DNA of 64,000 nt. It comes from an uncultured Acidobacteriota bacterium (GTDB taxonomy: Bacteria; Acidobacteriota; Vicinamibacteria; Vicinamibacterales; 2-12-FULL-66-21). Positions 13,011 to 64,000 of the stretch are shown here, one piece after another; within the stretch, counting starts at the first letter, position 1, and every line of letters begins with the position of its first letter. Position numbers and translations under genes: made by a program. Location of the stretch: contig CAVTIL010000015.1 in assembly GCA_963734695.1 (NCBI GenBank), positions 465,260-529,259 on the forward strand, read 5' to 3'. The notes beneath the pieces are model-generated. The model ran no database searches and was not told where the DNA came from. It saw only the letters and a list, made by a program, of their open reading frames with translations.

Positions 13011-13194
13011 GATCAGTTTCGGAGAGCAATACACAAGCCGCACTTCACACCCACAATCCCGTCCGGGATCATCTGATCGGGGCCCTCACAGATCACGTAA
13101 TTGGTGAATGCGGTTTCGAGATTGTAGGGACCAATCCAGCCCCACGTTTGAGCACTTCCGTCGTGATGTTCTAATCGCCGGATCGAAGGATTGG

Positions 13195-13246
13195 AAATTC
13201 GATTCGAGGATCCGGGATTCAGGATCAGTGATCAGCGATCAGGGAT
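13195..13246. repeat. degenerate heptamer array (GGATCCG/GGATTCA/GGATCAG/TGATCAG/CGATCAG/GGATTCA)
   Basis: Read directly between the ADOP stop (13247) and the upstream small gene: ggatccgggattcaggatcagtgatcagcgatcagggattca. Confidence 0.5.
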
Positions 13247-15682
13247 TCATTCCTGCCTGAGCGCCACCAGCGGATCGACACCGGCCGCGCGGCGCGCGGG
13301 AATGTAACAGGCGCCGAGCGCGACGAGAGCGAGCACCATCGCGACGGCTGCATAAGAAAGCGGATCCGCCGGCTGCACGCCGAAGAGTTGGCTGCGCAGC
13401 AGCCGCGTGGAGGCCAGGCTCACGCCAATTCCGATCACCAGACCGACGAGCACCAGTCTTCCACCCATCAGCAGCATCAAACCCAGCACGTGGCGGCGTG
13501 GCGCCCCCAAGGCCATGCGCACACCCAGTTCGTGAGTGCGTCGAAGCACGTGAAACGACAGGACGCTGTAAATGCCTGCGGCCGCGAGCGCGAGACCGAT
13601 GAGTGCAAACGCGCTGAACAGCGCCATCGTGAAGCGGGGCTGAATCACGTCTTCCCCGAGCACCTCGCTGACCGTTATCGGTCGGCCCAGGGGCTGATCC
13701 GGATCCATGGCCCGGAGGGCGGCACGAATCGGATTCAGCTGGAGATTGGGATCCGCGGCCGTCCGCACCGCGAGCATGCGCTGCAGTGGCGCGACGACGG
13801 AGTACGGCAGGACGACGACCGGGTTGGGATCGTTCCTGAGACCGGCGTTCCGCGTGTTGGCAATCATGCCGACGATCGTGACCTCCGCGCTGCGGCTCGA
13901 ATCGATGAGCGTGCGGGGAGGCGGATTCTGCAAGGCGCCGAGGCGCATGCGCGCACCAATCGGATTCTCGCCTGCCGGAAACAATTTCACGGCGGCTTCA
14001 TTGATGAGTGCGACGCGATCGCCACGTCGAATTTCGGCCGCGTCGAACATCCGACCGCCCAGGAGCCGGATGCCGAACACGCGCAGATGATCGGCCCCGA
14101 CGAAGTTCAGCCCGATGCGTTTCGAGTCGTCGGGCGTCTGGCCGACGACGGCGAAAGACGACTGGGTGCCGCCGAACGGGTGACCGACCGAAGCGGCTTC
14201 GATACCCGGCAGGGTGCGGACGCGATCGATCAGCGCCTCCACGAATTGATTGCGCTGATCGAAGGTTCCGTACTTGGCCGGGGGCAAGGGAACGCCGACG
14301 AGCAACACCCGATCGGCGCGGATACCGGGATCGACGCGATTGAGAACGAAGAAGGTCCGGATGGTCAGCCCCGCGCTGACGAGCAGGACGACCGACAACG
14401 CAACCTCGACAATCACCAGCACGTGACGGCTCCGTCCGCCGTCGCTCTCCAAACCGGTGCTGCGGCCTGCCTTCAACGTGTCCGCAATGTCCGGCCGCGA
14501 CATGCGAAGCGCCGGCACGACACCGAACAGGATGCCCGTCACCAGCGACACAAGGACGGAGAACGCGAGGACCGGCAGATTGATGGCGACGCGCGATTCA
14601 TTGGGCACATAGAACTCGGGCATCAGGCTCACGATCGTCCGGATGGCGCCAAACGCGAAAAGAACACCAAGAGCGCCCCCAGCCAGCGAGAGCAGCGTGC
14701 TCTCGGTGAGCAGTTGACGAAGCAGGCGACGTCGCCCGGCGCCGATCGACATTCTCACCGCCATCTCTCGGGTCCTCGCGGTGCCGCGGGCGAGCTGGAG
14801 GTTCGCGACGTTCGCACACGCGATCAGCAGGAGGAACCCGACCGCGCCGAGCAGGAGCTGAAGGCTCGTGCGCATTTCGCCGCTGGCTACGGTCACGTCG
14901 AGATAGTTCCTCAGCCTGGTGGTAAAACCTTGAGGTGGAAATGTGGACGGCTTCTCGTTCGCCAGGCGTTGATTGAAGGCTTTCAGCTGTTCTTCGGCCG
15001 AGGCCGGGGAGACGCCGGGCGCCAGCCGCATGATGGGATTCACAAAGAACAGATCGGTTCGACCCGGAGCGAGCGGAAGCCAGAACCCGTCGTTGCCGTA
15101 CCAGCCAAAACGCGGCGGCATTACGCCGATGATGGTGTGCGGCCGGCCGTTGAGCTGCATCGTCCGACCGATCGCAGACGGACTGCCCTCGAAGAGGCGC
15201 AGCCACAACCGGTGACTCAACACCACGACCGGTTCGGCCAGCCCGTCAGGCCGAATGTCCGACGGTTGAATCGTGCGCCCGGCAATGGGCGGCACGCCGA
15301 GGAAATTGAAGGCGTTGCCGGACAAGAGGACCCCGTTGACACTCTCCGGCGCAAATTCCCCCGCCAGGAGCACTGTTTCCTGGGAAGTGGCCATGACATC
15401 GGCAAACGCCTGGATTTCCGACAATTGACGCACCTCGTCCAGCTGGTAGGCCCGACCTCCGCGGCCGTCCGCTCCGCGAAGCTCCGGCGCCCAGATCTCC
15501 CCCGGCCTGGCGTACGGATACGGCGCGATGATGACGCCGTAGATCACGCTGAAAATCGCTGACGTCGCGCCGATGCCGAGCATCAGCGACAGGAGCGCCA
15601 CGAGCGTGAACGCCGGGCTCCGCCGAAACGATCGAAGGGCGTAGCCGAGATCCTGAGTCAGTCCCCCTAGCCAGCGGGTCAT
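13247..15682 (-). CDS. ABC-type permease, ADOP family (double FtsX)
   Basis: 811 aa. N-terminus MTRWLGGLTQDLGYALRSFRRSPAFTLVALLSLMLGIGATSAIFSVIYGV. Two FtsX modules. C-terminus PARRAAGVDPLVALRQE. Intact. Confidence 0.85.
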   Translation of the reverse strand: MTRWLGGLTQDLGYALRSFRRSPAFTLVALLSLMLGIGATSAIFSVIYGVIIAPYPYARPGEIWAPELRGADGRGGRAYQLDEVRQLSEIQAFADVMATSQETVLLAGEFAPESVNGVLLSGNAFNFLGVPPIAGRTIQPSDIRPDGLAEPVVVLSHRLWLRLFEGSPSAIGRTMQLNGRPHTIIGVMPPRFGWYGNDGFWLPLAPGRTDLFFVNPIMRLAPGVSPASAEEQLKAFNQRLANEKPSTFPPQGFTTRLRNYLDVTVASGEMRTSLQLLLGAVGFLLLIACANVANLQLARGTARTREMAVRMSIGAGRRRLLRQLLTESTLLSLAGGALGVLFAFGAIRTIVSLMPEFYVPNESRVAINLPVLAFSVLVSLVTGILFGVVPALRMSRPDIADTLKAGRSTGLESDGGRSRHVLVIVEVALSVVLLVSAGLTIRTFFVLNRVDPGIRADRVLLVGVPLPPAKYGTFDQRNQFVEALIDRVRTLPGIEAASVGHPFGGTQSSFAVVGQTPDDSKRIGLNFVGADHLRVFGIRLLGGRMFDAAEIRRGDRVALINEAAVKLFPAGENPIGARMRLGALQNPPPRTLIDSSRSAEVTIVGMIANTRNAGLRNDPNPVVVLPYSVVAPLQRMLAVRTAADPNLQLNPIRAALRAMDPDQPLGRPITVSEVLGEDVIQPRFTMALFSAFALIGLALAAAGIYSVLSFHVLRRTHELGVRMALGAPRRHVLGLMLLMGGRLVLVGLVIGIGVSLASTRLLRSQLFGVQPADPLSYAAVAMVLALVALGACYIPARRAAGVDPLVALRQE

Positions 15683-47952: not shown

Positions 47953-48015
<63 letters not shown>

Positions 48016-48019
48016 GAAA

Positions 48020-49261
48020 CTACTTCTTGTAACTAATCCGATAAATCACCCCAGCGAAATCGTCCGACACGAGCAGCGCACCATCGGGCATGACAAAGAC
48101 ATCGGCTGGACGCCCCCACGTCTTCCCGGTCGTCTGCGTGCCGCGCGTGCCGGCCACGCCCTGCAGCCAGCCTTCGGCAAACGGCGTAAAACTGGTGACG
48201 TTCTCACCCTGAAGCTTCGCCACCATCACACGGTAGCCGAGCGGTACGGACCGATTCCACGAGCCATGCTCCGCGATGAAGATCTGGTTCCGATATTCAG
48301 CAGGAAACATGGTGCCGGTGTAGAACCGCATGCCAATCGCGGCACCGTGTGGATCGAGTTTGCGCGCCGGCGGCTGGAACTCGCTGCACGCATGCTTGTC
48401 GCCGAACTCCGGGTCCTTGATCTCGCCAGCGTGGCAGTACGGAAATCCGAACGCGAGGCCCTTCTTCGGCGCGTGGTTCAATTCGTCCGGCGGAATGTCG
48501 TCGCCGAGGAGATCGCGGCCGTTGTCGGTGAACCACATCTCGTGCGTCTGGGGATGCCAGTCAAACCCGACGCTGTTGCGAACGCCGCTGGCGAAGATCT
48601 CCGTCGCGGTGCCGTCAGGCTTCATGCGGAGGATCGTCGCGAAACGCGGATCCTCCGGCCGTTCGCACACGTTGCACGGCCCGCCGACCGGGACGTAGAG
48701 CAGCCCGTCGGGTCCGAACCGGATGAACTTCTGACCGTGATGCGATTCGGTGGGCAGATCACTTTTCACGACCACCGGCGCGGGCGGCTTTTCCAGTTGT
48801 GACTCGATGTCGTCGTAGCGCGTGACGCGACTGATTTCGGCGACGTAGAGCGACCCGTCGCGGAACGCGACGCCGCTTGGATCCTTCAGGCCCTCCGCGA
48901 TCGTGAAGACCTGATCGGCCTTCTGATCGTGATCGCGATCGACGATCGCGTAGACCTTGTTGAAATCGCGGCTGCCGACAAACAGCGTGCCCTTCGCACC
49001 CATCACCATCTCGCGGGCGTGCGCCACTCCGGTCGCGTACAGATCGATGTGGAATCCCGGGGGCAGCGTGATTTGGTCCAGCGGCAGGGACGGTGGCGCC
49101 TGGGCCGTCCAGCCGCCGAGGGCGGCGACCGCGATCGTGGCGGCAAGAAGCTTGTACATAAAGTAAGGAGCATAGTCGATCGACGGTTTGGCGCGAGTTG
49201 GGGGTCGGATGTTAAATTTTTCGCTTTGTGCTATTTTCATAGCACCTTTTACCGGATCCAA
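48020..49261 (-). CDS. PQQ-dependent soluble sugar (glucose/sorbosone) dehydrogenase family beta-propeller protein
   Basis: 413-aa ORF. Probable true start at MYKLLAATIAVAALGG (about 49159, signal peptide). Motifs HHGQKFIRFGPDGLLYV and GFDWHPQTHEMWFTDNGRD typical of the GSDH family. Confidence 0.7.
   Translation of the reverse strand: MDPVKGAMKIAQSEKFNIRPPTRAKPSIDYAPYFMYKLLAATIAVAALGGWTAQAPPSLPLDQITLPPGFHIDLYATGVAHAREMVMGAKGTLFVGSRDFNKVYAIVDRDHDQKADQVFTIAEGLKDPSGVAFRDGSLYVAEISRVTRYDDIESQLEKPPAPVVVKSDLPTESHHGQKFIRFGPDGLLYVPVGGPCNVCERPEDPRFATILRMKPDGTATEIFASGVRNSVGFDWHPQTHEMWFTDNGRDLLGDDIPPDELNHAPKKGLAFGFPYCHAGEIKDPEFGDKHACSEFQPPARKLDPHGAAIGMRFYTGTMFPAEYRNQIFIAEHGSWNRSVPLGYRVMVAKLQGENVTSFTPFAEGWLQGVAGTRGTQTTGKTWGRPADVFVMPDGALLVSDDFAGVIYRISYKK
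49228..49245. promoter_or_regulatory. perfect 7-bp inverted repeat GTGCTAT-tttc-ATAGCAC in an AT-rich divergent promoter region; candidate BlaI operator
   Basis: Read directly. 75 nt upstream of the blaI ATG at 49321, within the locally AT-rich block gttaaatttttcgctttgtgctattttcatagcacctttt. Confidence 0.4.
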
Positions 49262-49712: not shown

Positions 49713-52009
49713 ATGAGCATCTTTCACTTCTTGCCTGTGGACTCCGGCACCTCATGGCTCCCCGTCGCCAGCGTCGTCCTGAAGGCCACGCTGATGCTGG
49801 CTGCCGCCGGCGCCGCCGCGTTTACTCTCCGTCGCAGGTCTGCCGCGCTGCGCCACATGATCTGGACGCTCGCGCTCGCCGGGGTTCTGCTGCTGCCCGT
49901 ACTGTCGATTGCGTTGCCGAGGTGGCAACTGTCGTTGGTGAAGATCGAGAAGGCAGCCTTCGCTCCCGCGCCGTGCGAAGGCTGTCTCGCCGAAGCGGCC
50001 GTGGCCGCGAAGGCGGACGCACAGTCAGCAACCCGCAGCCAGGAGTCGGAGAGCAATCGCCACCAGCCAATAACCAGAAGCCAGCAGCCAGAAGCCAGCC
50101 CTTCGACTCGCGCTGCCACCGACGCTCGCTCAGGGCAGGCAGCCAGCCTGTCATGGTCCACGATTCTGCTGGTGACTTGGATGGCAGGCGCGCTGTTGAT
50201 CCTCGCGCGCCTTGCCGCAGGGATCGTCGCGGTCCGATGGATGTCCCGGCGAGCCGAGCGCGTGACCGACGCGCCATGGCTGGCGCAGGCTCGATCGCTT
50301 GCGGCGGAGCTCGGGATCTCTTCACGGATCGCGTTTCTGCGCAGCAGTGGCGCATCCATGCCGATGGCGTGGGGCATCCTGCGCCCTGCCGTGTTGATGC
50401 CGGCGGTTGCCGACGAGTGGCCGGCCGAGCGGCTGCGGATCGTGCTGCTCCACGAGCTTGCGCACGTCAAGCGGCGCGACTGTCTCACGCACATGCTCGC
50501 GCAGGTCTCGTGCGCGTTGCACTGGTTCAATCCGCTGGCGTGGATGGCCGCCCGGCACGTTCGCCAGGAACGCGAACGCGCATGCGACGACCTGGTTCTC
50601 GCCGCTGGCACACGCGGTCCGGACTACGCCGATCAGCTCATCGAGATCGCACGGGTGATGCGCTCCGGCCGATTCCCCGCGATCATGGCGGGAGCGAGCC
50701 TGGCGATGGCGCACCGCTCGGAGCTCGAAGGCCGTCTCATGGCCATCCTGGATCCGAGCGTTCCTCGAGCGCGCGCTTTCGCGCGTGCGCGCCGCGGGAG
50801 CCACGTCGCTCTTCGCGCTGGCGGTCATGCCGCTGGCGTCAATGCAGCCCTGGACGATCGTCTCCACGCCTGGGGAGACACCCGCGCCAGCGGCCGTTCA
50901 GCAGAGCGCGTCTGCCGTCACGGCTCAATCGCCGACGCCCACGCCCACGCCAACGCCAACGCCGACGCCGACACCGTCAGATTCGTCCGACCGCTCGCAC
51001 CGGATCGACGCGGATAGCGCGGCTCACAGCGCGAGCGCGGCCGCGCAGTCGGCCGTTCAAAGCGCGGTGCAGAGCGGAATCCAGAGCGGGGTTCAAGCCG
51101 GCGTGCAGTACGGGGTCGCCGGCGCGATGGCGGGCGTGCAGGCCGTAACTGGCCACTTCGACGTCGGGACCCTCAATGCGGCTATCAACGCAGGTTTGGA
51201 CGCAGCCGCGCAGGCCGCGGCGAATCCGCATGACAACGGCGGCCGTCCGAGCAAGGCGGATCCCAGGACCGTTGCGGCCTTGACGGCGGCACTGAAGGAC
51301 ACAGACAAGGACGTTCGCGAAACCGCGATGCACGCGCTCGTGCAACTGCGCGATCCAAGTATTTTCGATCCGCTCGTCCAGGCGCTGTCTGATGGCTCGC
51401 CTGATGTGCGCGAGCAGGCCGCGTTCGGGCTCGGACAGCTTCGCGATCCGCGCGCCGTCGAACCACTGATCGGCGCGTTGAAGGATCAGAACGCGGACGT
51501 GCGCCAGCAGGCGGCATTCGCGCTCGGGCAGATTCGCGACCACAGTGCGGTTCCTGGCTTGAGCGCCGCGCTGAAGGATTCGAGCGACGACGTGCGCGAG
51601 CAGGCAGTCTTTGCGCTCGGGCAGATTCGCGACCCGGCGTCGGTCGATGCCCTCGTCGTGGCGGTGCGCGACACCAAGGCCGACGTCAGGCAGCAGGCCG
51701 TGTTTGCGCTCGGGCAGATTCGCGATCGGCGCGGCGTCGAGCCGCTCATCTCTGCCTTGAAGGATCCGGCTGCCGACGTGCGCGAGCAGGCCGCGTTCGC
51801 GCTCGGGCAGATTCGTGACCCCCGCGCGGTGGAACCGCTGGTGATTGCGCTGAAAGACAGCGTCTCTGATGTGCGCGAGCAGGCCGCGTTTGCGCTCGGG
51901 CAGATTCGCGACCCACGCGCGATCGACGGTCTGACGACGGCGCTCAAGGACTGCGAGCGCCGACGTTCGACAGCAGGCGGCGTTCGCGCTCGGGCAGCTG
52001 GCTCGTTGA
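49713..52009 (+). CDS. BlaR1/MecR1-like M56 peptidase membrane sensor fused to a Pro/Thr linker and C-terminal HEAT-repeat domain. Apparent frameshifts near 50790 and 51965.
   Basis: 4-TM M56 domain with HELAHVKRRD (HExxH) in ORF 49713..51017. The frame switches to ORF 50785..52023, which has a (PT)n linker and about 8 repeats of ALKDxxxDVRxQAAFALGQIRDPRAVEPL. The final repeat is only in frame (DVRQQAAFALGQLAR*) after a shift near 51965, giving a stop at 52009. Confidence 0.55.
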
Positions 52010-52013
52010 TTTC

Positions 52014-52082
52014 TGATTGCTGATTGCTGATTGCTGATTGACTCGGCCCAATCAGCAATCAGCAATCGACAATCAGCAATCG
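52014..52082. repeat. inverted array of heptamer repeats: (TGATTGC)x4, 9-nt loop, (GCAATCA)x4; potential ~30-bp hairpin
   Basis: tgattgctgattgctgattgctgattga ctcggccca atcagcaatcagcaatcgacaatcagcaatcg, read directly after the BlaR1-HEAT stop. Confidence 0.7.
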
Positions 52083-52084
52083 AA

Positions 52085-52124
52085 GGGCGGGGCCAAAGGC
52101 CCCGCCGACCCATTGGTGTGTTTT
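52085..52124 (+). terminator. Rho-independent terminator-like hairpin (GGCGGGGCC-aaa-GGCCCCGCC) followed by a U-rich tract
   Basis: 9-bp GC stem with 3-nt loop at 52086-52106, then gacccattggtgtgttttc. Confidence 0.5.
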
Positions 52125-52148: not shown

Positions 52149-52916
52149 ATGCGCATGACTCCCCTCGCTGTCTTTGTTCGGACCCTACTCAAGACGAGCG
52201 CCGTGTTCATCGGCGTCACGACCGTAATGCTGCACCCGTCGTTCGAATGGTCCCGCGCCTCCGGGTTGTCCACGTCGTACACGCGCGTCGTGACGGCGCG
52301 GCAGAGCCCGGCAGAAGCGGCCGTCGATGCACTCGTCGCGGCGCTGAAAGACACGGATGCGGGCGTCAGGCGCCAGGCGGCGGCTGCGCTTGGCGACATC
52401 GGCAACGCGCGCGCGGTGACGGGATTGATCGACGCGCTGAAGGACGCCGACCCGGACGTGCGTCAGCACGCGCTGTCGGCGCTCGGCGAGATCGGTGACC
52501 GCCGTGCCGTCACGGCCATCGCGGGCCTCCTGAAGGACAGTTCGCCTTCGATTCGCAGGAGCGCGGCGTCCGCGCTTGGCGAGCTTGGAGACAGCACGGC
52601 GGTCGATCCCCTCATCGCCGTCATCAATGATGCGAATGCCGATGTGCGGAGACACGTCATCTCGGCGCTCGGAGAACTGGGTGACTCTCGAGCGCTGCCG
52701 GCGTTGACGACCGCGCTCAAGGACGCAGATGTCGCGGTGCGTCGAGCGGCCATACAGGCGATCGCCGAGATCGGCGACGGAGGCGGGGGGCATCGTTTCA
52801 ACGTGCACGTACCCAGTCCCCATCCCCATCCGCATCCGCACCCGAATCCCAACCCGAACCCCAATCCCAATCCGAATCCAAACCCGCGGCTCCAGGAATT
52901 CAGCCAGGAGCAGTGA
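52149..52916 (+). CDS. HEAT-repeat (PBS-lyase-like) protein with C-terminal HPHPHPNPNPNP low-complexity tail
   Basis: Six ALKDxDxxVRxxAxxALGxIGDxRAV repeats. Signal/TM-like N-terminus. Tail PHPHPHPHPNPNPNPNPNPNP. Intact, 255 aa. Confidence 0.7.
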   Translation: MRMTPLAVFVRTLLKTSAVFIGVTTVMLHPSFEWSRASGLSTSYTRVVTARQSPAEAAVDALVAALKDTDAGVRRQAAAALGDIGNARAVTGLIDALKDADPDVRQHALSALGEIGDRRAVTAIAGLLKDSSPSIRRSAASALGELGDSTAVDPLIAVINDANADVRRHVISALGELGDSRALPALTTALKDADVAVRRAAIQAIAEIGDGGGGHRFNVHVPSPHPHPHPHPNPNPNPNPNPNPNPRLQEFSQEQ

Positions 52917-58820: not shown

Positions 58821-58886
58821 CAAGGGATAAGCACCTTTTCCCCTGTTTCCTGCCTCTGCCGTTCTTTTGCGGTACGATTCGCGTGC

Positions 58887-61519: not shown

Positions 61520-62797
61520 TCAGATCTCCCCACGCGCCGCCGCGAGCTCGAGCTGCTGATCGGTCGCCTCGACGAATTCCCCTTCCCACTTCGCGATCAC
61601 CACAGTCGCCAGGCAGTTGCCGATCACGTTCGTCATTGTTCGCGCCATGTCCATCAGCTCGTCCACACCCAGGATGAGTGTCACCCCCTCGAGAGGCAGC
61701 CCGTAGCTGGCAAGCGTGCCCGCGAGAATGACCAGAGACGCCCGGGGTACTCCCGCCACGCCCTTGCTGGTCAGCATCAGCGTGACCAGCATCGTGATCT
61801 GGTGCCCGATCGTCAACTGCACGCCGGCGGCCTGCGCGACGAACACGGCTGCCAGCGAGAGGTACAACGTCGTCCCATCGAGATTGAAACTGTAGCCCAG
61901 CGGAAGGACGAACGACACGATGCGCCGCGGAACACCCAGGCGCTCGAGCGCCTCCATCGCGCGCGGCAGTGCGGCTTCGCTCGACGTCGTCGAGAACGCA
62001 ATGATCGCCGGTTCCTTGACCGCGCGGATGAACTTCCGGAGCGGGACCTTGAACAGGAGGGCGATCGGAAGGAACACGGCAAGGATGAGAACGGCCAGGG
62101 CGCCGTAGAGGGTCGCGACGAGCCAGGCCAGGTTGTACAGCACGCCGATGCCGCCATGGCCGACGGTATAGGCAATGGCCGCACCGACGCCGACAGGCGC
62201 GTAGTGCATCACGATGTTCGTGAACTTGAACATCGTCTCGGCGAGCGCTTCGCACCAGGCCAGCACCGGTCGTCCCTTGTCGCCAATCATGCCCAGCGCA
62301 ATCCCGAAGAAAATGCTGAACACGACGATTTGAAGCACGTCCCCTTTGGCCATCGCATCCAACAGCGATTCGGGAACGACGTGAAGGAGGATCTGATCCC
62401 ACGTCTGAGGCTTGGCCGTTATGTCGGATGCCTGGCCTATCGGCAGGTTGACGCCGACTCCGGGCTTCGTCAGGTTGACCGCAACGAGCCCAATCACCAG
62501 CGCGAGCGTGGTGACGACTTCGAAGTAGATGAGTGCCCGCAGTCCCATCCGTCCGACGACCTTGAAGTGGCCTGCCCCGGCGATCCCCGCCACGAGCGTT
62601 GCGAAGATCAGCGGTGCGATGACCATCTTGATCAGCCGAAGGAACAACTGGCTGAAGGGACGGAAGTAGACGGCATATCCCGGGTGCGTGGCGTCGATAA
62701 TGGCGCCGACAATGATGCCGAGGATCAGGCCGGCGAAAATCTGCTGGGTCAGCGTGAAGCCGCGTCGCGGCGTGAGCGGGGTTGCGGCCTGTGCCAT
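61520..62797 (-). CDS. dicarboxylate/amino-acid:cation symporter (DAACS; DctA/GltP family)
   Basis: 425 aa. 8-10 hydrophobic segments and re-entrant-loop motifs (AFSTTSSEAALP, NLDGTTLYLSLAAVFVAQ, GVPRASLVILAGTL). Intact. Confidence 0.85.
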   Translation of the reverse strand: MAQAATPLTPRRGFTLTQQIFAGLILGIIVGAIIDATHPGYAVYFRPFSQLFLRLIKMVIAPLIFATLVAGIAGAGHFKVVGRMGLRALIYFEVVTTLALVIGLVAVNLTKPGVGVNLPIGQASDITAKPQTWDQILLHVVPESLLDAMAKGDVLQIVVFSIFFGIALGMIGDKGRPVLAWCEALAETMFKFTNIVMHYAPVGVGAAIAYTVGHGGIGVLYNLAWLVATLYGALAVLILAVFLPIALLFKVPLRKFIRAVKEPAIIAFSTTSSEAALPRAMEALERLGVPRRIVSFVLPLGYSFNLDGTTLYLSLAAVFVAQAAGVQLTIGHQITMLVTLMLTSKGVAGVPRASLVILAGTLASYGLPLEGVTLILGVDELMDMARTMTNVIGNCLATVVIAKWEGEFVEATDQQLELAAARGEI

Positions 62798-62858
62798 CGA
62801 ATCGTGTCCTCCCCGGAGGCGCCGGGATCACGGGATTCTATCCGAACTGAAACGAACA

Positions 62859-62981
62859 GGTTCTACAGGGTTCTGCTGGGTTCTACGAGGTTCTGCAAGG
62901 TTCTGCAAGGTTCTCTGAACCGAATGAACCCCGAACGAACCCCGTAGAACCTTGTAGAACCCTGTAGAACCCTGCAGAACC
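62859..62981. repeat. 10-bp-phased pentamer array: (GGTTC-N5)x6 followed by (N5-GAACC)x7, an inverted pair of direct-repeat arrays
   Basis: GGTTC starts at 62859, 69, 79, 89, 99 and 909. GAACC starts at 62917, 27, 37, 47, 57, 67 and 77. Exact 10-nt periodicity. Unit consensus GGTTCTRCAR. Lies between the methyltransferase stop (62993) and the DctA-like start (62797). Confidence 0.85.
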
Positions 62982-62992
62982 TGAAGTGAGTT

Positions 62993-63733
62993 CTAAATCC
63001 ATAGACTGCGGGCGGTCAGCTCGCGCGGATCTAGTCCGGCCGAGCGACCGAGGAGGCGCTGACGCTCGGGAAGGTCGATTCTGAACCGCCACTCGTCGGC
63101 TCTGCCGCCACCGGCCACGAACCGGTCCTGCCATTCGGCCCACCAGGCGAGTGCGCGTTTCGCAATCGGCTCGATCACGAGCACGTGCGCACCCTGTTCG
63201 CGTGCGTCAAGCAGTTTGATCAGCAGTACCGACCGCGCGTCATCGTCGATCTCGTTGATTGAATAGGCAGCCAGGATTCCGTGGCCTTTACGGCCACGAA
63301 TTGGCGCGCGCATCATGTCGCCTTGCCCCGCGTATCCGCCGATGCCGAACTGCCGGTACGTCCAGCTGGCCTCGGACACCGCCCACGGATGCTTGTCGAC
63401 GCCGTTGATTGAGGACCCGCTCTCCATCGCCCACGCCGCGCCAGCCGCACCCGTGCCGCAGCCGAGATCCAGTATGTGGGCAACATATCGCGCGCGATCG
63501 ATCGCCCGGACGATTTCACGGGTGACCAGAAAATGGAAAGGCCCGTAGAACAGCCCGAACGCGGCTCGTTTTCCTGCCGTGCTCAATGCGGCTCCCTGCG
63601 CCAGCTTCGACCGGCGCTCGACGTAGCACGACGAAAGGGAACGCAGCGCGCGGGCCACCTCGGAGGGCCTGAGGTTCGCGAGATGCCGTTTGTCCAGCGC
63701 CGCCAGCCAGTCAGAGAACGACGTGTCTGTCAC
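62993..63733 (-). CDS. class I SAM-dependent methyltransferase
   Basis: 246 aa. Motif I ILDLGCGTGAAGAAWA. Acidic motif II region. Intact. Confidence 0.65.
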   Translation of the reverse strand: MTDTSFSDWLAALDKRHLANLRPSEVARALRSLSSCYVERRSKLAQGAALSTAGKRAAFGLFYGPFHFLVTREIVRAIDRARYVAHILDLGCGTGAAGAAWAMESGSSINGVDKHPWAVSEASWTYRQFGIGGYAGQGDMMRAPIRGRKGHGILAAYSINEIDDDARSVLLIKLLDAREQGAHVLVIEPIAKRALAWWAEWQDRFVAGGGRADEWRFRIDLPERQRLLGRSAGLDPRELTARSLWI

Positions 63734-63786
63734 AGTTAGGACATTGTGGCACTGGATCTTTCAGGGGGCACGGAGGAGACGAAGAC

Positions 63787-64000
63787 CTACAGCTCCACCT
63801 GCATACCGAGCTCAACTACCCGTTCGGGAGGAATCTTGAAGAACGCATTCGCGCGCATGGCATTGCGGGCAATCAGCACGAAGAGCCGTTCGCGCCACAG
63901 CGGCAGCCCGGGGCGGCGAGTCGCCAGTAACGTCTCAATGCCGAGAAAGAACGTCGTCTCGTTCAGGTCGAGCGGGAAACCGCGGGCCGAGGCCTCCTCG
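63787..64000 (-). CDS. kup: potassium uptake protein Kup/HAK/KT family, C-terminal fragment (gene continues beyond window)
   Basis: The reverse-strand frame with no stop up to the window edge ends ...RERLFVLIARNAMRANAFFKIPPERVVELGMQVEL*. This matches the conserved Kup C-terminus (...FRIPPNRVVELGTQVEI). Confidence 0.55.
   Translation of the reverse strand, partial: EEASARGFPLDLNETTFFLGIETLLATRRPGLPLWRERLFVLIARNAMRANAFFKIPPERVVELGMQVEL

Follow-up and report, generated by a model that had tools for sequence, protein, structure and literature searches.

Phased GGTTC modules form a dispersed family of intergenic repeats in Acidobacteriota

The window analysed here, a stretch of 64,000 nucleotides from an uncultured bacterium of the order Vicinamibacterales (phylum Acidobacteriota; contig CAVTIL010000015.1), contains a block of short phased repeats between a methyltransferase gene and dctA, both on the minus strand. 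The initial annotation had proposed a cooperative protein-binding array or an iteron-like element, possibly regulatory for a neighbouring gene, that could also fold into a long hairpin. Its description of the gene context was accurate, with the methyltransferase stop codon 11 nt away and the dctA start 62 nt beyond the block. An exact look-up of the window DctA protein gave no recorded match. Vicinamibacterales-group Acidobacteria are among the most abundant soil bacteria, and to our knowledge almost nothing is known about their genome architecture and gene regulation. The features discussed below are collected in Table 1.

Table 1. Coordinates of the repeat block, its neighbours and related features (window positions unless a locus is named)
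Feature	Position	Strand	Description
SDF/DctA-like sodium:dicarboxylate symporter ORF (context only)	61520..62797	-	PF00375, E 1.9e-121
dctA leader, independent of the element	62807..62840	-	TAGAAT -10-like box and CCCGGCGCCTCCGGGGAGGA; from comparison of orthologs
dctA-proximal arm	62859..62913	+	Six GGTTC cores at exact 10-bp phase, without doubled-core junction
Irregular centre/hairpin apex	62914..62932	.	TCT turn and GAACC cores at 62917 and 62926 (9-/11-bp spacing)
Methyltransferase-proximal arm, canonical module	62933..62981	-	Five 10-bp-phased GGTTC cores on the minus strand
Spacer from methyltransferase stop codon to first core	62982..62992	-	11 nt; diverged in orthologs
Class I SAM-dependent methyltransferase-like ORF (context only)	62993..63733	-	PF13649
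Heptamer array examples	L003 2228-2290; L066 2903-2984; L085 4319-4395, 6461-6543; L087 530-662; L113 422-486
PadR + MacB_PCD/FtsX neighbour examples	L044 3448-6882; L118 4092-7220

Within the block, six GGTTC cores start at 62859, 62869, 62879, 62889, 62899 and 62909, in 10-bp steps throughout, and seven GAACC cores follow at 62917, 62926, 62937, 62947, 62957, 62967 and 62977. The proposed exact 10-bp phasing of thirteen half-sites holds for the six GGTTC cores and the outer five GAACC cores, whereas the innermost two GAACC intervals measure 9 and 11 bp; a degenerate GAACG is located at 62933. In the methyltransferase-proximal arm the phased cores are followed by an out-of-phase doubled core, GGTTCGTTC (GAACGAACC on the plus strand, 62933-62941). 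The units of the dctA-proximal arm consist of GGTTC plus TACAG, TGCTG, TACGA, TGCAA and TGCAA, and with six cores this arm belongs to a rare class (3/74 Acidobacteriota arms). The pattern GGTTC-N5-GGTTC occurs ten times in the 64-kb window, nine of them within the block, versus 0.15 expected from shuffles (ten was reached in 0/100), and both TRF and a repeat finder returned period-10 arrays in the block with arms of 47 nt that are 85% complementary. Outside the block there are 12 near-matches to the unit in the window versus 7.6 expected, i.e. single copies are not enriched.

The anticipated potential for a long hairpin or cruciform was confirmed by stable folds on both strands, as the predicted RNA fold reaches -88.5 kcal/mol (z -11.4) on the minus strand and -86.6 kcal/mol (z -13.0) on the plus strand, and the DNA fold scores -42.4 (z -9.9). 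CRISPR arrays alternate repeats of 24-48 bp with unique spacers of about the same length; the block, with its 10-bp units and semi-conserved spacers of 5 nt, is not one of them, as had been stated. In an Rfam search of the block region only two miRNA-precursor matches appeared, both below threshold (25 bits against a gathering score of 77), and these are generic long-hairpin artefacts.

One genome per bacterial or archaeal species was scanned with (GGTTC-N5)x3-GGTTC, which gave at least 116 loci, and about 45 of the matches listed came from MAGs assigned to Vicinamibacterales, 'Acidobacteriota' or Thermoanaerobaculia. A GGTTC array followed within 400 bp by a GAACC array was present at no fewer than 23 loci in 10 MAGs, all Acidobacteriota among the matches listed, and the reverse order was found at none of these 23 loci. 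Viral contigs contained 91 matches to the phased motif, none of them palindromic. The family is multi-copy and, among the matches listed, limited to Acidobacteriota (Vicinamibacterales and relatives). Several MAGs have at least five to eight loci each, and single 8-kb loci can carry two or three arrays; the loci were examined as 8-20-kb stretches and the copy numbers are lower bounds. The genome of the window itself is not among the matches listed, and the coding segments of the window share 70-75% nucleotide identity with Acidobacteriota MAG loci that bear the family. In the literature, which we covered incompletely, we found no description of a GGTTC-decamer family, and this is absence of evidence only.

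The elements are intergenic, 80-570 bp long, and always have GGTTC outermost at the 5' end, with a centre that varies in length and sequence and inner parts in which the unit length ranges from 5 to 13 nt; one-armed (solo) modules are common. Many copies begin 0-16 nt from stop codons and fill convergent gaps. By the calls of a crude GC3-based gene finder, the module-bearing gaps are divided into convergent, tandem and divergent ones as 24/57/19%, compared to 21/58/21% in the background, so that no enrichment in convergent gaps is apparent at this level of gene calling. The 73 ORFs flanking modules match 103 Pfam families and encode ordinary transport and metabolic functions. MacB/FtsX is the commonest neighbour family, and gene pairs of a PadR and a MacB_PCD/FtsX permease adjoin the modules most often (5 MacB and 3 PadR among the 73 ORFs), which may reflect a very large paralogue family in Acidobacteria. 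Transposases were absent from the 25 most frequent Pfam families of these ORFs and from ten individually examined ones.

Comparison of the arms revealed a defined module. Counted from the outer end at exact 10-bp phase, 51 of the 74 Acidobacteriota arms have five cores, 11 have four and 3 have six, whereas in other taxa the numbers of arms with four to seven cores fall monotonically (31, 19, 11 and 5), as expected from the search threshold. In 41 of the 51 five-core arms the fifth core is followed by a doubled core in the form GGTTCGGTTC, GGTTCTGTTC or GGTTCGTTC. The module is thus a segment of about 50 bp with five sites spaced by 10 bp and usually a sixth core offset by half a turn (GGTTC[G]GTTC); given the exact spacing, the five sites lie on one face of the duplex. 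Two such modules arranged head-to-head around a variable centre make up the palindrome at 62859-62981. The unit consensus is R-GGTTC-Y-R-C-N, with T (.63) or C (.29) at position 6, A (.56) or G (.36) at position 7, C (.90) at position 8, a free position 9, and G (.66) or A (.30) at position 10; the preference at position 6 varies by genome, which is either T-type or C-type. The arms were ascertained with exact GGTTC, so the family-wide conservation of the core is partly built in, a bias that the comparison of orthologous sites mostly avoids.

Element lengths share no common remainder modulo 10, and together with the existence of solo modules this implies that each arm acts as an independent unit. 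Copies of a master element would share the order of their spacer variants, but elements of one genome show no such shared order (3.41 vs 3.37, p = 0.23). The two arms correspond only weakly, with a spacer identity of 3.45/5 for matched units, slightly above the 3.14/5 of unmatched ones (permutation p = 0.009). A different spacer set, GGTTCCAGAG / GGTTCTCGAG, occurs in the Vicinamibacterales MAG SMAG_U3631 (L034 3200-3830 and L043 4380-4620), where the modules have a small GGCCTTCGGCC hairpin at either end; L034 shows 17 phased cores, and its centre measures 250 bp.

The evolution of the block could be followed at its own site. Orthologs of the methyltransferase were found at 97% to about 63% identity, and contigs were examined for several of them, complemented by additional orthologous copies from a metagenome scan that have the conserved dctA leader; the gene order Kup - methyltransferase - SDF/DctA - CNNM is conserved. 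Six lineages possess the element in the methyltransferase-dctA gap, namely the window, L117, L243, L118/L119, L224 and L235. In L229 it is truncated, with part of one arm left, and in L121 and L123 it is reduced to a single GTAGAACC adjoining the same downstream flank. The element is absent from this gap in L122, L231, L240 and L244, as well as in L124 and L125, which have an extra GGDEF gene and, in the position of the element, an ordinary GC-rich hairpin after the methyltransferase stop. The latter may point to a terminator slot. The carriers and L121 group together at about 85% methyltransferase identity, and the empty or remnant sites fall mostly outside it. The element has been gained, truncated and lost at this orthologous site.

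The L121 junction, gtggatgTAGAACCtgg, is the expected product of a deletion between two GTAG copies, one at the stop codon and one in the last unit, and L121, L123 and L229 look like deletion remnants. The pattern at this site thus resembles a single old gain with repeated decay afterwards, and not recent hopping. In the only near-identical pair, L118 and L119, which represent the same species in two samples, there is one SNP in the element and the copy number is equal. The repeat units of L117 appear as 9-mers (GGTTCTACA). Spacing drift between close relatives was rejected as the reason, since the closely related L243 has regular 10-mers; L117, L123 and L243 are error-prone long-read 'contig_N' assemblies with many split genes, probably due to homopolymer frameshifts, and the 9-mers of L117 most likely result from shortened GGG runs. 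A second polymorphic orthologous site lies between a MacB-like permease gene, whose stop it directly follows, and the CNNM gene; here a solo GAACC module is present in L118 (16760-16930, 9 cores) and L121 (6688-6805, 5 cores); the corresponding gap has no such module in the window (58821-58886), L117, L122, L124 and L125.

Whether the block serves dctA can be judged from the dctA leader. It contains a TAGAAT -10-like box (62835-62840) and CCCGGCGCCTCCGGGGAGGA (62807-62826), which is a small hairpin of 5 bp (CCCGG/CCGGG) that overlaps the ribosome-binding site (Shine-Dalgarno). The leader may act as an element of translational control. Its CCCGGCG...GGGGAGGA form is found, exact or slightly changed, in every ortholog compared (L118, L121-L125, L224, L229, L231, L235, L240, L243 and L244), with or without a GGTTC element; most orthologs also have the TAGAAT box, which takes the form TACAAT in L122, and in L117 another sequence stands in its place. 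The phased geometry, which resembles iteron and parC-type arrays, and the location just upstream of the dctA leader would fit an operator or iteron array acting locally on dctA or the methyltransferase gene, or else a site for replication or partition. However, the family is dispersed beside unrelated genes, the leader is retained in L121, L122, L123, L231, L240 and L244 where the element is absent or reduced to one core, and there are no rep/par genes nearby, the flanking genes being those for the methyltransferase and the DctA-like symporter. The dispersal and the element-free syntenic relatives that keep the leader hairpin contradict a locus-specific function, to which we assign only a minute probability. 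The regulatory or iteron-like role considered in the initial annotation is therefore not supported for dctA or the methyltransferase, and the genome scan has revealed what that annotation had named as the counter-case, a repeat family in many intergenic gaps next to unrelated genes. Almost certainly, the block belongs to a lineage-specific interspersed repeat and does not regulate dctA. Situated between the methyltransferase stop and the dctA leader, it could insulate the two transcription units. In Alphaproteobacteria and Acidobacterium, LexA-type sites are direct repeats of the form GTTC-N7-GTTC; this candidate was set aside because the spacing here is GTTC-N6-GTTC.

The five orthologous copies from the window, L243, L118, L224 and L235 were compared over the outer 45 nt of each arm. 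At core positions there were 0/250 and 4/250 pairwise mismatches in the two arms, whereas spacer positions mismatched in 42% and 40% of the comparisons. The stop-to-core flanks have diverged among these copies; the GGTTCGTTC junction on the proximal arm is kept in 5/5, and so is the module with five phased cores. Pairing between the arms was assessed over the outer 45 nt of both arms in 16 elements. The cores pair in every element since the arms were chosen by exact cores, whereas the free spacer position is unpaired in 9, 7, 12 and 8 of the 16 elements, which is the chance level, and the R position of the units often gives A.C mismatches between the arms. Overall arm complementarity, 89.4%, exceeds the 85.8% of shuffled controls (0/500 shuffles were as high), and a one-sided G.U asymmetry is strong in some elements (10:0 in L029, 18:4 in L019); on account of both, some selection on a single-stranded hairpin may also have acted. 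On the other hand, invariant cores, drifting spacers and pairing at the chance level at the free spacer position argue for selection on the phased sequence and not on hairpin pairing. These comparisons show a strong constraint on sequence and 10-bp phase and a weak one, if any, on base pairing.

An alternative in which the selected feature is the long hairpin itself, in RNA or single-stranded DNA, would give the element, between the methyltransferase gene and dctA, a role in REP-like transcription termination, in stabilising mRNA 3' ends or as an RNase III site, with the 10-bp units merely recording how the stem grew. It draws on the very stable folds of both strands, the many copies located 0-16 nt from stop codons and filling convergent gaps, the GC-rich hairpin that follows the methyltransferase stop in relatives devoid of the element, and the slight excess of arm complementarity over shuffle controls. 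It does not explain why solo modules, unable to fold alone, are common, why the variable spacer position pairs at chance, or why the cores are invariant in sequence beyond mere complementarity. Intrinsic (Rho-independent) terminators consist of a short GC-rich stem-loop followed by a U-tract, and a consensus scan of 62600-63200 detected no U-tract or intrinsic terminator. Of 13 tandem contexts, folding favours the sense strand in 8 and the antisense strand in 5, i.e. without bias, and the gap types, as far as crude gene calls can tell, match the background. We regard this explanation, of which the structured terminator named in the initial annotation is one form, as possible but rather unlikely. 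Rho rut-like C-rich arrays were rejected as well, since solo modules are of mixed orientation to the direction of transcription (about 7 to 4).

A purely selfish MITE, i.e. a non-autonomous transposon that lacks any host role and whose long terminal inverted repeats are arrays of transposase-binding sites, would account for multi-copy intergenic elements of 80-570 bp with fixed arm polarity and a variable centre, and also for the lineage-specific unit variants (T or C at position 6), as in co-evolution with a cognate enzyme. Also in its favour, tyrosine transposases with long inverted repeats on their flanks are reported from Acidobacteria (PMC3733652). Against it, no target-site duplication is seen, as the longest common substring of the flanks averages 3.67 compared to 3.35 in a null of mismatched flank pairs; the inspection of the neighbouring ORFs described above yielded no transposase; and no gene lies between the arms in any copy found. 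Moreover, the orthologous copy keeps intact cores across lineages whose methyltransferases are only about 85% identical, and the losses resemble microhomology deletions, not excisions. This explanation is rather improbable in our judgement. Neutral growth of a microsatellite-like array in place, by replication slippage and fold-back template switching, could be expected in genomes where tandem arrays of other short units abound (heptamers roughly every 10 kb, some of which are palindromic), and the inner unit length does vary from 5 to 13 nt. Yet the outer core count is sharply peaked at five, palindrome polarity is 23 to 0 among the matches listed, the unit consensus recurs at unrelated loci and across genomes, and the cores are unchanged across orthologs while the adjacent spacers drift, which leaves neutral growth very unlikely.

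The comparative data are better fitted by a cooperative protein-binding array than by a pure hairpin, since in orthologs the cores and the 10-bp phase are invariant and the spacers drift without compensation between the arms; this part of the original proposal stands, detached from the regulator or iteron function for dctA or the methyltransferase. Under the array reading, an oligomerising sequence-specific protein would bind the five phased sites cooperatively on double-stranded DNA, and the hairpin would be largely a by-product of the inverted arrangement of modules. Candidate binders are an enzyme that mobilises the family itself and host proteins acting in the nucleoid, in insulation or in termination. 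At the locus studied here, the element would at most keep the transcription units of the methyltransferase and dctA apart, acting just upstream of the dctA leader as a roadblock, a hairpin or both. That the module is kept because such a protein binds its five sites on duplex DNA, with the hairpin secondary, is the reading we prefer, at about even odds. The invariance of the cores could in principle come instead from gene conversion with other genomic copies. A more specific version, which we put forward tentatively and would not yet favour, is that the module serves as a chromosomal platform for an oligomerising DNA-binding protein, so far overlooked, of Vicinamibacterales-type Acidobacteria and is host-selected at hundreds of intergenic sites; the platform protein might have a role such as nucleoid organiser, transcription-unit insulator or roadblock terminator.

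Several other short-unit repeats are present in the window and in related loci. A second palindromic array at 52007-52081 (and 52085-52106) consists of (TGATTGC)x5 and then the complementary (GCAATCA-like)x5; it extends over the stop of a HEAT-repeat ORF (50785-52023, plus strand), lies 67 nt ahead of the next ORF, and is followed by a GC-rich hairpin, GGGCGGGGCC-AAA-GGCCCCGCC. Related CTGATTG/CAATCAG heptamer palindromes occur in the Kup-methyltransferase gap of L124. At 47955-48015, only 4 nt away from where the minus-strand ORF 48020-49261 stops, there is a one-armed array (GCGAACC)x8.7 whose units are 100% identical; it has the GAACC core of the block in a 7-nt period and looks recently expanded. 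The inner runs of L034 include GAACCCG x7 and GAACCCA x7. One-armed GGATTC / GATCAG(T) heptamer-like units at 13180-13250 abut the stop of an 811-aa ORF (13247-15682, minus strand), and in L117, L122, L243 and L121 units of this type build long palindromes between the Kup and methyltransferase genes; the corresponding gap of the window (63734-63800) is free of them. The Acidobacteriota loci L001-L113 contain heptamer arrays with many unrelated units, about one per 10 kb away from GGTTC seeds, and inverted heptamer pairs are found in L061 (5394/5489) and L023 (2541/2837). It should be noted that (CCCAAT)x11 at 52812-52879, inside the 3' end of a plus-strand ORF (52149-52916), is probably a coding Pro-Asn repeat and not an intergenic array. 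The heptamer arrays suggest that these Acidobacteriota genomes are generally rich in short-unit intergenic repeats, much like cyanobacteria with their STRRs.

For the window, the tempting inference that the array controls dctA is removed. More generally, a phylum-specific module with five sites on one face and invariant cores points to a specific molecular partner, for which the module could be used as bait. The elements are also of practical concern, as they break short-read assemblies (several arrays lie at contig ends), are distorted by homopolymer errors in long-read assemblies, and could be mis-called as CRISPR arrays or regulatory sites.

Among known repeats, the REP/BIME elements of Proteobacteria, which are mobilised by RAYT, resemble the GGTTC family in being multi-copy, intergenic, lineage-specific and located beside unrelated genes, in occurring as singletons and head-to-head pairs, often just after stop codons, and in their rapid turnover between relatives. 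A REP unit is itself a hairpin of 20-40 bp that carries a GTAG or CGTC tag at its end (PMC3733652), whereas the GGTTC unit is a non-self-complementary direct 10-mer, present in five phased copies, and a hairpin requires two opposed modules. GTAG is found inside many GGTTC units (CTGTAGAACC), alternating with GCAG. No association with a RAYT (Y1 transposase) gene was seen within the 8-20-kb stretches examined. Bacterial MITEs (Correia of Neisseria, ERIC/IRU, Nezha and Chunjie) are likewise intergenic, commonly of about 80-300 bp, and fold into long hairpins, and the GGTTC family shares with them terminal inverted repeats (arms of at least 45 nt) and a variable centre. In contrast to MITEs, it has no target-site duplication, no cognate IS was found, its inverted repeats are internally periodic, and the orthologous copy is old with intact cores. 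In distribution and turnover, the family behaves like REP/BIME elements or MITEs, while failing the unit structure of the former and the target-site duplication of the latter.

Arrays of 10-11-bp direct repeats that are bound cooperatively by oligomerising proteins include parC, bound by ParR in type II partition, the OmpR and PhoB sites and the MraZ boxes. Like the GGTTC module, they are arranged head-to-tail at one helical turn, in about five copies, with a constrained core and free spacers; however, they are single-locus arrays with the cognate gene nearby, whereas the GGTTC module occupies many chromosomal intergenic sites. DNA uptake sequences (DUS/USS) occur as inverted pairs downstream of genes and similarly represent a 10-mer motif inverted in intergenic DNA, but the GGTTC motif is not enriched as single copies and comes in blocks of five. 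Cyanobacterial STRRs are phylum-specific, short, tandemly repeated heptamers that litter intergenic DNA. The GGTTC family is comparable in forming phylum-specific short-unit intergenic arrays, and the same Acidobacteriota loci carry many heptamer arrays; it differs from the open-ended heptamer runs of STRRs by its 10-nt unit, fixed number of five copies and defined junction. If the platform reading is true, the GGTTC modules would represent a class of dispersed protein-binding repeats distinct from the hairpin-type REPs.
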